Below are positions 1,877 to 13,789 of a DNA stretch of 14,327 nt, piece by piece; position 1 is the first letter of the stretch; every line of letters begins with the position of its first letter. The notes beneath the pieces were generated by a model. That model was given only the letters and a program-made list of their open reading frames with translations, did not search any database and had not been told where the DNA came from. The translations under genes and the position numbers were made by a program. Source of the stretch: a virus. Where the stretch lies: UHGV virus genome UHGV-0149611, one strand, 5' to 3'.

Positions 1877-3420
1877 CGTCTATTGAATCCTTATACAATC
1901 CCTTTCCAGAATCTTATCAGACCTTAAAAGCAATAACTCTATAGTCTACTCTATAACCTCTTATCAAATCAACTTAAATAAAAGCCAATAACCCCCAGAA
2001 AGGGGATGGCCCATTTAAACGCTCTATAAAGCTCTATAACAGCCTTATCAACCTAACTTAAGGGATTGCATTAACCAACCTTAAAAAGCTCTTTACAGGG
2101 CTTTATAGAGACTTAAAAGAATCTTATAAGGGTGTAAGCTTTATCATCTCGTTAGTATCTTGTGAATAACTAAAAAGGGCTATGAGATAGGAATCTATCG
2201 AATCCTATTGTTAGTGTCTTAAAAGTATGTTATAGGGGCTTAAAAGTTACTTCAAAGTTACGTAAAAGGGGTTATAAAGTTACGTAAATGCTAACCCCCT
2301 TAACATTATCTTAACAATCCCTACATAGTTATGCTTGTTAGAGACTTGTTAGCCACTTGTTAAATCTCTGTTAAGACCACGTAAAAGCCTTGTAAGAGTC
2401 TTTGACATAGCCTTAAAAGTTCCTGTAAAGCCCTATAAAGAGGTGTCTGTATAGTTGGGGTGTAACTACTAGGAAGAGACTTAAAAGGGGCTATACAGAG
2501 CTATAGAGAGCTTTTAAGAGGTATGTTTAAGGAATCACTAAGAAGGGAAAGGGAACGATAAGAAAGAGATAGTGACCATGTTAATAGCTTGTTAAAAAGA
2601 TTAAACACTTGTTAGAGACTTGTTAATTATCTTAACAAAATAACTCTTAAAAATTAACTTGTTAGCTCTTGTTAGTCATCTGTTAAGATTCTGTAAAGCC
2701 CATGTATCAACTGTTAAGAAACTGTTAAGCCCTTGTTAGTTCTGTTAAGAATCTGTTAAGACCTATGAAGAGTTGTTAAGAGCTTGAGAGAGTTGTTAAG
2801 AAATTGTTAAGGATATTTTAAAATTTTGCAAAGTACTTGTAAGGGAGTTGTTAAGGGCTACCAAGCAGATATACACCCTATTCAGATATTTTTGAGTTCC
2901 TTCAAAGACCCTAAAAAATGACTTGATAGTCCTATTTTATAAAAATTTTAAGATTCTGAATAATTACCTAGACAGTCTTTTAAAAATACAGGTAATAACA
3001 GGCTTATAAGATACCTTGTTAGTACCGTGTTAGACCTTGTGAGATAAGGTCTGTAAAGATATTCCTGTTAAGTTTGTTAAAACAGTCTATATAGAGGCTT
3101 AGTAATACCTAGTGAACACCTATAGAGAGTAACATAGCTGACATAGAGATTAAGAGGTGTATAGGAGCTTCTAAGAGGGTATAGAGAGATGGTTAAGGTG
3201 ATTGTATAGGTTGTTTAGAAGGCTTGTTAGAAGAGTGTTTAGAAGGGCTATTTAGAAGGGTTATACAGAGGGCTATTAAGACCACTAGATAGTTACTAAG
3301 ATACTATATAGTACTATATAACTATATAGAGAGTAAGATTAAGAAGGTTGTTAAGAAGGATAGATATTTTATTCACATATGATGGTGACCAAGAGGTTGG
3401 GACAACCGATAAAATTTTAT
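1877..3420. repeat. ~1.5-kb non-coding region of degenerate short words (CTTAAAAG, CTATAAAG, CTTGTTAG, CTGTTAAG, TTAGAAG, CTATATAG), partly phased at ~10-11 bp
   Basis: No ORF of 60 aa or more on either strand; stop-rich in all frames; YTGTTARG words starting at 2588, 2609, 2619, 2659, 2669, 2680, 2711, 2722, 2732, 2742, 2753, 2773, 2793, 2804. Confidence 0.8.
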
Positions 3421-3451
3421 AAAAATTAAAAAGCCCCCAATTAAGGAGGCT
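3421..3451 (-). terminator. Rho-independent terminator candidate at the end of the leftward gene block
   Basis: On the minus strand: AGCCTCC-TTAATT-GGGGGCT hairpin followed by TTTTTAATTTTT, just downstream of the stop at 3463. Confidence 0.6.
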
Positions 3452-3462
3452 CTTAAGATATT

Positions 3463-4086
3463 TTAAATCAGTGTTTCCAGAACTGTCTTCAGTGATGACT
3501 TGGTTGTCTGATAAAAATGAGTAAATCCATTGTTGTTATCGAATATCTGCATCATGATATCATCACCCTTGATTGGGTAAACTCGGATATCATAGTGAAA
3601 ACCATTAAAGACACAAGAGCCATTACAGAATGCACTAAAGTCATCAACTGAGATATACTCTTCATGTCCTGTGATTTTTATACAAACGCCTTTACTCGGT
3701 CTCTTAGGGTTGATATCTTCCATCACAGACATACTCTGTCCACCAAGAGATACCATAGTGACCACTTTACGGTTCTTCTGTTTAAAGTACATCTTAACTT
3801 TCTGCAAAGTGTCTTCATAGAATGGATAAGACTTCTCTACAAAGATTCCTTCAAGTGGCTCTTTACCATTTTCAACTTCTCGGTTATGCCGTACTGCAAA
3901 GATAATTTGTTCGAACCAGTCAAGATTTTCTTCGGAGAGTGCTTCCCGAACATCCTTCCAGTCAAGTACTAAGTAGTTACCTTCAACTTCTTTTAAGTTA
4001 TCTTTTTCCATATCTATCACACCATTATCGTAAAACTTGATATTCTGGTACTGCGAATTTATTACTATTATTCTTGATGAGGTCAT
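3463..4086 (-). CDS. hypothetical protein (207 aa); start uncertain
   Basis: Long ORF; first ATG overlaps the upstream gene by 62 nt and has a poorly spaced SD; an internal ATG near 4011 is an alternative. Confidence 0.55.
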   Translation of the reverse strand: MTSSRIIVINSQYQNIKFYDNGVIDMEKDNLKEVEGNYLVLDWKDVREALSEENLDWFEQIIFAVRHNREVENGKEPLEGIFVEKSYPFYEDTLQKVKMYFKQKNRKVVTMVSLGGQSMSVMEDINPKRPSKGVCIKITGHEEYISVDDFSAFCNGSCVFNGFHYDIRVYPIKGDDIMMQIFDNNNGFTHFYQTTKSSLKTVLETLI

Positions 4087-4960: not shown

Positions 4961-5185
4961 TTACTCAGATTTTTCAGTCTTCTTATCAGATTTCTTACTA
5001 GTCTTCTTCTCAGCTTTCTGTTCAGGCTCCTTCTCAGAAGTTGCCTTAATAACCATATCAAGAAGCTCTGATAAGTCACTCTTCAGAAGTGTTACAGGCT
5101 GCTCGTTGTAGAAGTTTTTGTCAAGATAAACTTTGAATTCTTCTATAGAAGGAAATCCAAAAATTGGTACAGGTGTCTTAATCAT
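4961..5185 (-). CDS. hypothetical small protein (74 aa) with lysine-rich C-terminus
   Basis: ORF in leftward block; C-terminal KAEKKTSKKSDKKTEKSE tail. Confidence 0.5.
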   Translation of the reverse strand: MIKTPVPIFGFPSIEEFKVYLDKNFYNEQPVTLLKSDLSELLDMVIKATSEKEPEQKAEKKTSKKSDKKTEKSE

Positions 5186-10917: not shown

Positions 10918-10930
10918 GAACTATTGCAAG

Positions 10931-10979
10931 TTAAAAAAGTTGTTGACAAAGTACTTGACAAGGTGTAGGCTTATAAATA
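10931..10979 (+). promoter_or_regulatory. Rightward control region: A-rich upstream, tandem TTGACA boxes (10943-10948, 10955-10960), TATAAATA (10972-10979)
   Basis: Same AAAAAGTTGTTGACA context as other promoter candidates; spacing to TATAAAT is not canonical for sigma70 (11 or 23 bp). Confidence 0.3.
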
Positions 10980-11092
10980 CTTAGAAGATAACTTAAAAGG
11001 TTCCTCTAAAAAGGCTATTTAAACAGATATCTTTCTGGATATCTATCTTTTATCTTAAAAGCCTTTTAAGAGGTCTTATAAGAGGCATACCA

Positions 11093-11464
11093 ATGAAAAA
11101 CAGAACAAACAAAGGCCAGTTTAAAAAAGGCCAGTCTGGAAACCCATCTGGAAGACCAAAAGGCTCTCGTAACAAAAGCTCACTTGTAAAAGCTCAACTG
11201 ACCATTGATAATTCTGCTGAGTTTGCTGCAAAGTTGTTTGAGGCGGTTGTTACAAGGGATGCTGCTAAGCTTGCAGAGTTCGGTTTGACGACTGACGATG
11301 TAAACCTGAAGTCGATGATGGAGGCTGGTAAAACCATCATGACTCACTCAGCAGGTGAGATGAAAGCGATTGCAGCAGACACTAAGAAGACCCCTGATAA
11401 TGGTGGTCAGTCTCAGACAGATAACAAACCAACGTTCTCTGCTGTAGCGACTCTCAAAAAATAA
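11093..11464 (+). CDS. hypothetical small basic protein (123 aa) with N-terminal GNPSGRPKGS (AT-hook-like) motif
   Basis: AAGAGG 7 nt upstream of ATG; GRP core flanked by basic residues; Ala-rich probably helical C-terminal part. Confidence 0.65.
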   Translation: MKNRTNKGQFKKGQSGNPSGRPKGSRNKSSLVKAQLTIDNSAEFAAKLFEAVVTRDAAKLAEFGLTTDDVNLKSMMEAGKTIMTHSAGEMKAIAADTKKTPDNGGQSQTDNKPTFSAVATLKK

Positions 11465-13126: not shown

Positions 13127-13203
13127 CTCTGTTTAGCTCAGCTTGGTAGAGCGTTCCGTTTGGGGCGGTAAGGCCGGAGGTTCAAGTCCTCCAACAGAGA
13201 CCA
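13127..13203 (+). tRNA. tRNA-Pro (anticodon UGG), CCA encoded
   Basis: Acceptor CTCTGTT/AACAGAG, D-loop AGCTTGGTA, anticodon loop TTTGGGG, T-arm GGAGG-TTCAAGT-CCTCC, discriminator A, CCA; C1:G72 as is typical for tRNA-Pro. Confidence 0.85.
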
Positions 13204-13210
13204 AATTAAT

Positions 13211-13288
13211 GTTCCAGTAGACAAAATGGTAAAGTCACCACTCTTTCAAAGTGGATATCTGAGGGTTCAAATCCCTTCTGGAACGCCA
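13211..13288 (+). tRNA. tRNA-Glu (anticodon UUC), CCA encoded
   Basis: Acceptor GTTCCAG/CTGGAAC, anticodon arm CCACT-CTTTCAA-AGTGG, T-arm GAGGG-TTCAAAT-CCCTT, discriminator G, CCA. Confidence 0.75.
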
Positions 13289-13295
13289 GTTTTGA

Positions 13296-13367
13296 CAGAA
13301 GACCAATTACAGCAAACTTAATCTACTCATCTGACACGAAATCGGACAAAGAAGATATTTGGTCTGG
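13296..13367 (+). ncRNA. Stem-bounded element a: CAGAAGACCAA ... TTGGTCTGG
   Basis: 7-bp arms AGACCAA/TTGGTCT enclosing 52 nt; conserved flanks CAGAAGACC and GGTCTGG shared with elements b-d. Confidence 0.4.
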
Positions 13368-13378
13368 TCATTGAGAAT

Positions 13379-13455
13379 TGCGGGTATAGAGAAAGGGCGT
13401 CTCACATGTCTCATTAGCATGGTATCGGCAGGTTCGACTCCTGCACCCGCCTCCA
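13379..13455 (+). tRNA. tRNA with anticodon CAU (Met or Ile2); atypical features
   Basis: T-arm GCAGG-TTCGACT-CCTGC, acceptor 3' ACCCGCC plus U plus CCA, D-arm GAGA/TCTC, anticodon arm CATGT-CTCATTA-GCATG; register of the 5' acceptor strand ambiguous by 1 nt; position 37 is U. Confidence 0.55.
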
Positions 13456-13461
13456 ATTTTG

Positions 13462-13521
13462 CAGAAGACCGTATTCAGCAACAAAATACTTTTTGCGGAT
13501 AAAAGAAAAAACACGGTCTGG
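13462..13521 (+). ncRNA. Stem-bounded element b: CAGAAGACCGT ... ACGGTCTGG
   Basis: 7-bp arms AGACCGT/ACGGTCT enclosing 40 nt; arm sequence co-varies relative to elements a and c. Confidence 0.4.
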
Positions 13522-13532
13522 CAATGTATTAA

Positions 13533-13609
13533 GGTTAGGAAGCACATAAGGTATGTGCGGTCGCCTGTTAAGCGAATGGCACAGGGTTCGAATCCCTGAC
13601 TAACCGCCA
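13533..13609 (+). tRNA. tRNA-Asn (anticodon GUU), CCA encoded
   Basis: D-arm GCAC/GTGC, anticodon loop CTGTTAA, T-arm CAGGG-TTCGAAT-CCCTG, acceptor 3' ACTAACC, discriminator G, CCA. Confidence 0.8.
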
Positions 13610-13618
13610 AATTTAAAT

Positions 13619-13706
13619 GTGTCGTTATCCCGTAGATGGTAGCGGTGGGGACTGTAAATCCCTTGTCATTGAGACTCGGTAGGTTCGACTCCTACACGAC
13701 ACACCA
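13619..13706 (+). tRNA. tRNA-Tyr (anticodon GUA), long variable arm, CCA encoded
   Basis: Acceptor GTGTCGT/ACGACAC, anticodon arm GGGGA-CTGTAAA-TCCCT, ~15-nt variable arm, T-arm GTAGG-TTCGACT-CCTAC, discriminator A, CCA; 88 nt. Confidence 0.85.
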
Positions 13707-13711
13707 ATAAA

Positions 13712-13789
13712 GGTTATGTAGTTTAATTTGGTTAAAATACTACCCTGTCACGGGAGATGATGAGGGTTCAAATCCCTTCGTAACCGCCA
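13712..13789 (+). tRNA. tRNA-Asp (anticodon GUC), CCA encoded
   Basis: Acceptor GGTTATG/CGTAACC (one G-U), anticodon loop CTGTCAC, T-arm GAGGG-TTCAAAT-CCCTT, discriminator G, CCA. Confidence 0.8.

Follow-up and report, generated by a model that had tools for sequence, protein, structure and literature searches.

The 14,327-nt stretch of phage genome UHGV-0149611 analysed here (the window, to which all coordinates refer) contains a gene-free island at positions 1877–3420. The ends of the virion genome and their short direct terminal repeat (DTR) very probably lie within this island, at 2294–2862. The island is paved with short words sharing one frame, CT-N4-AG, and a subclass of them, TGTTAR, forms an array phased on one face of the helix inside the repeat. 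An initial annotation, made from the letters of the window, had described a non-coding island of phased short arrays bracketed by terminators, and had proposed a packaging site, a partition site, a replication origin, a protein-sequestering array or intrinsically bent DNA, with the protein encoded at 11093–11464 as a possible binder. The description stands, as does a role as packaging or end region; bent DNA, the partition site and the suggested binder are not supported.

Genome ends and the terminal repeat

Region 1877–3420 matches 256 phage records at 80–93% identity. Nearly all of them either bear the name Felixounavirus or belong to that group as Escherichia, Salmonella, Shigella or Citrobacter phages. 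Judged by these matches, the stretch is a piece of the genome of a Felix O1-like myovirus of the genus Felixounavirus; the gene order around the island is the same as in annotated relatives.

Several relatives have their genome ends at the equivalent place. Exact repeats are found at both ends of the records of HP1 (570 bp), ZX4221 (591 bp) and SPJ41 (613 bp, in a record written in the opposite orientation). All three start with GCCCCCTTAACA and end with GTTAAGGGCTACC, and their equivalent in the window is 2294–2862. In the Salmonella phage UAB_69, a 618-bp feature annotated ‘DTR’ maps to 2292–2864, and the records of further relatives begin or stop at DTR boundary positions. A terminal repeat of 608 bp was established in UAB_Phi87 by Bal31 digestion and run-off sequencing (PMC4837284), and one of 581 bp in Pr103Blw by PhageTerm (PMC8303462). 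In the first paper on Felix O1, short terminal repeats were an inference only, and the island region is not described (PMC3185647); according to Bardina et al., Felix O1-like terminases fall in a DTR cluster. Collectively, the exact end repeats in relatives and the published end mapping indicate that the island is the concatemer junction, i.e. the genome-end region, of this Felix O1-like phage. In replicated DNA, one copy of the repeat would stand between right-end unique DNA (1877–2293) and left-end unique DNA (2863–3420), and the terminase cuts can be placed, by inference, at 2293/2294 and 2862/2863.

The window holds the DTR-homologous stretch once, as expected where a record opens elsewhere. 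Both boundaries are conserved in the window and in relatives. On the left, GCTA is followed across the boundary by (A/G)CCCCCTTAACA, and on the right, GTTAAGGGCTACC is followed by AAGCAGATATACA; an exact 21-mer spanning the right boundary is present in 28 IMG/VR contigs. The flanking genes on both sides are transcribed towards the junction and end at its two terminators. The packaging site that figured among the candidates of the initial annotation thus finds its place, since the evidence puts the virion genome ends, with a short DTR, in the middle of the island.

The two boundaries resemble each other. Read outward from the interior of the repeat, both (2282–2317 and 2849–2875) finish in TGTTAAGGG...CTA. 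The distance from word to cut differs by 2 nt between the ends, being 6 versus 8 nt in the window and 16 versus 18 nt, counted from GTTAAC, in phage SPARTY. This difference hints at symmetric staggered cuts, with overhangs blunted before sequencing. Hairpins at the repeat boundaries are not significant (z = -0.8 and +0.3).

Phased words and their common frame

The short words of which the island was said to be built are indeed strongly enriched, with 12 copies of TGTTAAG where 0.35 are expected and eight of CTTGTTAG where 0.05 are expected. What had been missed is that all the words listed fit a single dyad frame, CT-N4-AG, and that this frame is in excess genome-wide. The island contains 61 CT-N4-AG sites where 10.8±3.1 are expected (z = 16). 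The frame is specific for its spacer, with N1–N3, N5, N7 and N8 at or below expectation and N6 weakly raised (21 versus 10.6, z = 3.8). Strict sites number 14 in the left flank, 28 in the DTR and 18 in the right flank, and the arrays of short words both flank and enter the terminal repeat.

The TGTTAR subclass has a narrower distribution. Its 30 sites in the island compare with 3.2 expected; 23 of them fall inside 2294–2862 and 27 are on the top strand. Outside the island, it is not enriched (72 versus 82 expected). In 2588–2811, the strict YTGTTARG sites lie at 2680, 2711, 2722, 2742, 2753, 2773, 2793 and 2804, with spacings of 31, 11, 20, 11, 20, 20 and 11 bp, and their Rayleigh coherence is 0.97 at 10.3 bp. 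The helical phasing proposed for this segment thereby passes a formal test. The broader set of 16 TGTTAR sites on the top strand in 2570–2862 has a coherence R of 0.84 at the same period, a value reached by none of 3000 random placements (P < 1/3000). Among TGTTAR pairs at most 45 bp apart, 84% of distances deviate by at most 1 bp from a multiple of 10.5 bp, where the null gives 27%. Spacings of 11 and 20 bp alternate and together make 31 bp, or three turns, so that the phasing is truly helical and goes beyond an 11-bp tandem repeat.

Over the island as a whole, pair distances peak at 10–11, 20–22, 31–33 and 41–44 bp and then decay, and the Fourier peaks divide among 10.4, 11.1 and 11.6 bp. 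Helical multiples are enriched in these analyses, which had been suggested as a check, but across the full 1.5 kb the phasing is local only, holding over three to four units. Phase coherence and word enrichment together bear out the view that these are phased short sites resembling protein-binding arrays.

Anatomy of the island

The locus runs from small rightward genes through a terminator, the gene-free island and a second terminator to leftward genes. The convergent terminators described in the initial annotation were both recovered by a terminator scan, and both are annotated at homologous places in ASO1A, a 93%-identical relative. The absence of open reading frames (ORFs) holds as well: over all six frames of 1877–3420, stop-free stretches reach 46 codons at most and start-to-stop ORFs 35 aa. 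The stop codons are dense, as had been noted, but there is nothing special in their density (270 versus 274±9 in dinucleotide shuffles), since the composition of the island is 33% GC. Long open frames are slightly scarcer than chance would give, 3% of shuffles being equally poor in them. In E-value mode, Rfam gave no match within 1877–3420 and two sub-threshold matches at the leftward terminator (3421–3557). A tRNA scan found none in the island, and a sigma70 promoter scan of it returned 10 weak matches (5.8±2.3 expected), none of them convincing. The parts of the island and its borders are as follows.

1851–1876, + strand: Rho-independent terminator closing the rightward gene block; 7-bp stem (1851–1870) with five GC pairs, and a T-run.
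1877–2293, unstranded: left flank, with arrays of CTTAAAAG/CTATAAAG-type CT-N4-AG words; 14 strict sites, one per 30 bp.
2294–2862, unstranded: homologue of the short exact DTR, 569 bp, placed by homology to relatives.
2298–2317, - strand: inverted pair of TGTTAA words with 11-bp spacing, immediately within the repeat at its left boundary; inverted copy of 2793–2812.
2334–2376, + strand: four TGTTAR words at exact 11-bp spacing (2336, 2347, 2358 and 2369), reported by TRF as an 11-bp array.
2377–2518, unstranded: dense CT-N4-AG array of TAAAAG/TATAAAG/TATAGAG type within the repeat; 10 strict sites in 142 bp, 10–11 bp apart.
2531–2577, + strand: purine-rich, nearly word-free stretch between arrays; the 60-bp block 2519–2578 is 75% purine and has one CT-N4-AG.
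2579–2857, + strand: helically phased TGTTAR array of 16 sites on one helical face (period 10.3 bp, R and P as above).
2792–2833, + strand: most widely conserved core, GTTGTTAAGAAATTGTTAAGGATATTTTAAAATTTTGCAAAG, a candidate packaging recognition element, with blastn matches in distant Ounavirinae.
2863–2875, + strand: AAGCAGATATACA, adjoining the right repeat boundary on the outside; the same sequence stands in the junctions of Felixounavirus, Mooglevirus, Suspvirus and Kolesnikvirus.
2863–3000, unstranded: AT-rich (27% GC), word-poor segment adjoining the repeat; conservation 0.63–0.85 among relatives.
3001–3360, unstranded: right-flank arrays of CTTGTTAG, CTATAGAG, TTTAGAAGG and CTATATAG; 14 strict CT-N4-AG sites, top strand G-rich (GC skew +0.46).
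3421–3454, - strand: Rho-independent terminator closing the leftward gene block; 10-bp stem (3454–3429) with five GC pairs, and a T-run.

In the virion, the left flank would be unique DNA just ahead of the right-end copy of the repeat. The inverted word pair at 2298–2317 is 90% complementary to 2793–2812 over 20 nt, and SPARTY has two inverted TTAACA words at the equivalent place. The left end of the island has a negative GC skew, and the DTR and right flank have a strongly positive one, opposite to that of the adjacent genes. Two hairpins were seen in the flanks. A small GC hairpin at 1991–2007 in the left flank lacks statistical significance as a fold by itself; in UAB_69 and nataliec its sequence is different and still pairable (CCCGAAAGGG). 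At 3032–3052, a perfect hairpin with an 8-bp stem, AGACCTTG/TAAGGTCT (z = -3.9), lies within the best-conserved block of the island (3005–3104, conservation 0.93).

Conservation within and beyond Felixounavirus

The alignment comprised 18 distinct relatives, drawn from GenBank and from the 28 IMG/VR contigs found via the boundary 21-mer; conservation values refer to these 18. Mean conservation is 0.836 in the island (0.78 in its left flank), against 0.67 and 0.745 in the flanking coding sequences (CDSs), of which even the first and second codon positions reach only 0.72–0.81. The period-3 signal of variation is 0.1 in the island and 17–20 in the flanking CDSs. A hidden gene is ruled out by the missing period-3 signal and by conservation above that of the flanking genes, and so is a decayed one, which had been named as a reading that would overturn the initial annotation.

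Variation follows the words. Within the DTR, variability among relatives has a period of 10.5 bp, and the frame and core positions of CT-N4-AG are better conserved than the 3-bp spacers. Relative to the window, 90 distinct indel events were counted, 36 of them single-base and 26 of length 10–12 or 21–22 bp; the commonest longer lengths are 11 bp (12 events), 12 bp (five) and 22 bp (five). Indels of unit length indicate that whole units are gained and lost.

In distant Ounavirinae, only window 2767–2875 of the island is detected by blastn, above all 2790–2833. The match of the Pectobacterium phage Arno18 covers 2790–2833 at 91% identity, and those of the Erwinia phage phiEa21-4 and the Hafnia phage SPARTY span 2767–2875. 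A comparison with the equivalent locus in related phages had been recommended; phiEa21-4, SPARTY and Arno18 each have a gene-free island of 1.2–1.4 kb between convergent gene blocks. The record of SPARTY, a Kolesnikvirus, has an exact 439-bp terminal repeat and the same plan as the window. Its left flank carries CTTCTAAG-type words at 11-bp spacing, at the position that the left flank has in the window, its repeat starts with GCC directly after TA, and at its right end GATTTTGCAAAG is followed, just outside the repeat, by AAGCAGATATACA. Successive TGTTAAG spacings are 11, 11, 9, 20, 20, 20, 11 and 22 bp in SPARTY and 11, 11, 9, 11, 20, 20 and 11 bp in the window. The phase of the TGTTAR array is 10.3–10.4 bp in Felixounavirus, Mooglevirus, Suspvirus and Kolesnikvirus, and in the first three genera site positions counted from the right end are alike (-140, -129, -120, -109, -89, (-69), -58 and -14).

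CT-N4-AG in the whole genome

Outside the island, CT-N4-AG occurs 130 times in the window against 58 expected. In ASO1A, counts are 425 versus 206 in bases 1–45000 without the island and 382 versus 196 in bases 45001–87613, so that the excess in window and ASO1A is 2.0- to 2.3-fold. It is 1.7- to 2.0-fold in the Kolesnikvirus and Arno18 loci. The corresponding ratios in other phages are 0.88 (Lambda), 0.82 (T4) and 1.08 (Pseudomonas phage PAK_P1). Density in ASO1A is even, with 40–56 sites per 5 kb over almost the whole genome, and the terminal island is the only hot spot in its 87.6 kb. In an unbiased scan of all dinucleotide pairs with spacers 1–8, CT-N4-AG ranks top.

In the CDSs of ASO1A (64 genes), CT-N4-AG is found 325 times, against 167±9 after synonymous-codon shuffling (z = 17), and enrichment is present in all three codon phases. 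A codon-phase artefact was rejected as a cause, given the lack of any excess at spacers N1 and N7 and the failure of synonymous shuffling to reproduce the one at N4; host-driven bias was rejected because Lambda and T4 are without it. The genome-wide excess appears to reflect selection at the DNA level, in this subfamily only. Pairs of sites outside the island peak at 11–12 bp (18 and 19 pairs versus 4.2 expected) and again at 21–24 bp.

Smaller accumulations of the word were noticed. Phased clusters at 450–530 and 10930–11085 (CTTAAAAG, CTTTATAG, CTTAGAAG and CTTATAAG) sit just downstream of strong sigma70-like promoters, in both of which the TTGACA hexamer is duplicated; CT-N4-AG words may also act in early transcript leaders or promoter regions. 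Five words at exact 12-bp spacing (4982–5037) lie inside the CDS at 4961–5185 (- strand), where the C-terminal tail that they encode is rich in Lys, Glu and Ser. A coding repeat could here double as a carrier of the DNA motif.

A model for the island and its alternatives

We consider it moderately probable that the island combines docking arrays for the terminase with sites for a lineage-specific architectural protein at the genome ends. After replication, the terminase would recognize the junction via the conserved core at 2792–2833 and the phased TGTTAR array, whose geometry would let it wrap around, or align along, an oligomeric phage protein such as the small terminase. The terminase would cut at the two repeat boundaries, and packaging would entail duplication of the repeat, as it does in other short-DTR phages. 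The generic CT-N4-AG words, whose paving of the island suggests a DNA-binding protein, would be sites for a dimeric, cooperatively binding architectural protein. We infer dimeric-protein sites because the words are dyad-framed, spaced by 10–12 bp and about 2-fold over-represented throughout the genomes of Ounavirinae, synonymous positions included. As the densest CT-N4-AG array, the island is a likely nucleation or anchoring centre for such a protein at the genome ends. Taken singly, the two parts of this proposal are less secure than the position of the ends: for the TGTTAR array as docking site of the packaging machinery, the evidence seems evenly balanced, and an equally divided judgement applies to the CT-N4-AG words as binding sites of an architectural protein.

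Several observations weigh against this proposal. The DTR of this phage is placed by homology with relatives. Scans of the predicted proteins of the window against Pfam and PHROGs revealed no recognized DNA-binding domain. In ASO1A, the large terminase gene is ~16 kb from the island and no small terminase is annotated. CT..AG reads alike on both strands, and the genome-wide excess may therefore have a cause at the RNA level. A layout of iteron-like words plus AT-rich DNA that might serve as an origin is present as well. Finally, the short-repeat arrays at the genome ends of T7 were reported to be mostly non-essential in a knock-in screen (bioRxiv 10.1101/2024.10.10.617714), so that the flank arrays here need not be required for packaging either.

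The alternative that fares best, although unlikely, is that the arrays are unrelated to packaging and form a site at which a genome-coating protein comparable to phi29 p6 is loaded or sequestered, with end protection, silencing or condensation as its role, while the terminase reads the boundary sequences only. This would account for the DNA-level excess of CT-N4-AG along the genome with its 11–12-bp pairing, for a single hot spot located at the genome ends and for the small phased clusters downstream of sigma70-like promoters. It fits poorly with TGTTAR, whose sites are concentrated in the repeat, show no enrichment outside the island and stand at constant distances from the cut in three genera; this points to a function linked to the genome ends as such. 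Moreover, no candidate for the coating protein was found.

A replication origin is a less probable explanation still. The phased words would be iterons for a phage initiator and the 27%-GC segment at 2863–3000 an unwinding element; either the genome ends there by chance, or origin and packaging functions are combined, as at T7 phiOR. The region is non-coding and highly conserved, direct repeats on one face adjoin the AT-rich segment, and the GC skew turns from negative in the left part to strongly positive in the DTR and right flank, against the trend of the adjacent genes. However, the virion cut of relatives falls between the array and the AT-rich segment, and no initiator-like gene is adjacent, the flanking proteins being without known domains. 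Only two isolated DnaA-box-like sites, each with one mismatch, occur in the island, and they form no cluster. The words are 8 bp long, versus 17–22 bp typical of iterons, and the CT-N4-AG frame is spread over the whole genome. ASO1A also has another word-dense region, divergent and intergenic, beside the DNA polymerase gene (MZ726791.1, 64890–65125; seven CT-N4-AG in 236 bp), a type of location that could harbour an origin instead.

It is very unlikely that the island acts through structure alone, as intrinsically curved or anisotropically flexible DNA to which no protein binds sequence-specifically. AT-rich cores between the CT and AG steps are phased at 10.3–11 bp, but the bent DNA of the initial annotation is not borne out by a wedge-model calculation, in which the island (10.25) exceeds neither its shuffles (10.8±0.6) nor the rest of the window; the calculation, in a self-written implementation, is weak as a test. 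The greater conservation of the frame letters C, T, A and G relative to the spacers also speaks against it. Neutral debris at the genome ends, whether tandem repeats made by slippage or the tolerated remains of a gene, is scarcely credible: the 11- and 22-bp indels show that slippage or unequal exchange happens, and some records annotate tiny ORFs of 25–49 aa in the island, but the conservation data and the missing period-3 signal reject it, as do the lack of an open frame longer than 46 codons and the retention of the architecture in genera that can otherwise no longer be aligned.

A bolder extension of the preferred model, combining terminase docking with architectural sites, is offered tentatively and is itself rather improbable. 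CT-N4-AG, at ~1 site per 100 bp and kept by selection even at synonymous positions, would be a ‘self’ code of the Ounavirinae, read by a phage protein that coats or organizes the whole chromosome, and the terminal island would be the nucleation centre that couples genome organization to end recognition and packaging. If so, these phages would possess a sequence-specified chromatin, loaded at a telomere-like site.

Comparison with known systems

The closest known parallel is the concatemer junction of T7, a non-coding region that contains a short exact terminal repeat and has short-word arrays inside and beside this repeat. The flanking short-repeat arrays of T7 are reportedly called SRL and SRR, names said to come from Dunn and Studier in 1983. 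The T7 terminase cuts at both repeat boundaries, which resembles the cuts proposed here. In T7 (NC_001604), the repeat is 160 bp long, and the word CCTAAAG occurs 13 times within ±260 bp against ~0.2 expected, mostly 13 bp apart; CT-N4-AG is not enriched at the T7 junction (3 versus 4.5). By comparison, the Felix O1-type island is about three times larger and helically phased (10.3 bp), with a word frame over-represented genome-wide. As word and period (CT-N4-AG, 10–11 bp) are unlike those of T7, the arrays of the island are analogues of the T7 arrays and not members of the same class. Packaging in T7 is coupled to T7 RNA polymerase, whereas the annotation of the relative ASO1A contains no gene for a phage RNA polymerase.

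Other packaging sites share some of these properties. SPP1 pacL/pacR, the P1 pac hexamers and the R sites of lambda cosB occupy 100–300 bp with three to seven sites, usually in or next to the terminase genes. They likewise have several short repeated sites near the cut, in a geometry for wrapping on an oligomeric small terminase. In contrast to them, the island has 16–30 candidate sites in 0.6–1.5 kb of gene-free DNA far from the large terminase gene, and the ends are exact repeats, neither headful nor cohesive.

The phi29 protein p6 is an abundant protein that covers the length of the genome with a ~12-bp binding repeat, the genome ends being its preferred sites of nucleation. The genome-wide CT-N4-AG sites, paired at 11–12 bp and densest at the ends, are reminiscent of this. 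However, p6 reads bendability and not a defined word, phi29 carries terminal proteins in place of a terminal repeat, and no p6 homologue was found here, in searches not aimed at one; the comparison concerns a resemblance in possible working only, not membership. Iteron-type origins such as lambda ori consist of phased direct repeats adjoining an AT-rich segment, with iterons of 17–22 bp. The island is similar in having phased direct repeats beside an AT-rich segment, and differs in its 8-bp word, the lack of an adjacent initiator gene, the virion ends that would split the putative origin, and the genome-wide occurrence of the word.

Candidate binding proteins

The ‘AT-hook-like’ protein encoded at 11093–11464 (+ strand), which the initial annotation had suggested as a binder of the phased segment, corresponds in Pfam to DUF5681 only. 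It has an invariant N-terminal arm, KG..GNP.GRPKG, conserved across Ounavirinae, and in ASO1A its gene is the first in a rightward block that runs through tRNA genes to the terminase and head genes. Sequence searches of NCBIfam and the PDB were without match, and its 54 homologues have no functional name. The AlphaFold model (pLDDT 68) consists of a basic disordered arm and two long helices, and a Foldseek search with it against the PDB gave no match (E > 3). Domain, homologue and structure searches thus yielded no evidence of DNA binding, and its candidacy as binder is not supported. The partition site likewise lacks support: the phage is lytic, and no parA/parB-type genes adjoin the repeats in the window or are annotated in the whole ASO1A genome. 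The searchable literature contained nothing relevant on the motif, on DUF5681 or on the island.

Novelty, significance and other observations

Where the terminal repeat lies in Felix O1-like phages was known beforehand, from annotation in GenBank and from two papers. Relative to the searchable literature, three points appear to be new: that the whole island is built of one dyad-framed motif; that it contains a one-face TGTTAR array with site positions conserved across genera; and that the frame is in ~2-fold excess genome-wide by DNA-level selection, in this subfamily only. These properties give a testable handle on how myoviruses with short DTRs recognize and cut concatemers, and bear on the purpose of repeat arrays at phage genome ends. 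They also matter for the engineering of widely used Salmonella and E. coli biocontrol phages, where gene recoding or genome rebooting could disturb the motif or the junction.

Two further observations concern the records and the neighbourhood. GU169904.1, a 147-kb record named Staphylococcus phage SA1, carries a Felix O1-type island at 135421–137011 with 89% identity, and is probably chimeric or mislabelled. At 13127–13789 of the window, six tRNA genes (Pro, Glu, Met, Asn, Tyr and Asp) form the start of the large tRNA block typical for these phages.

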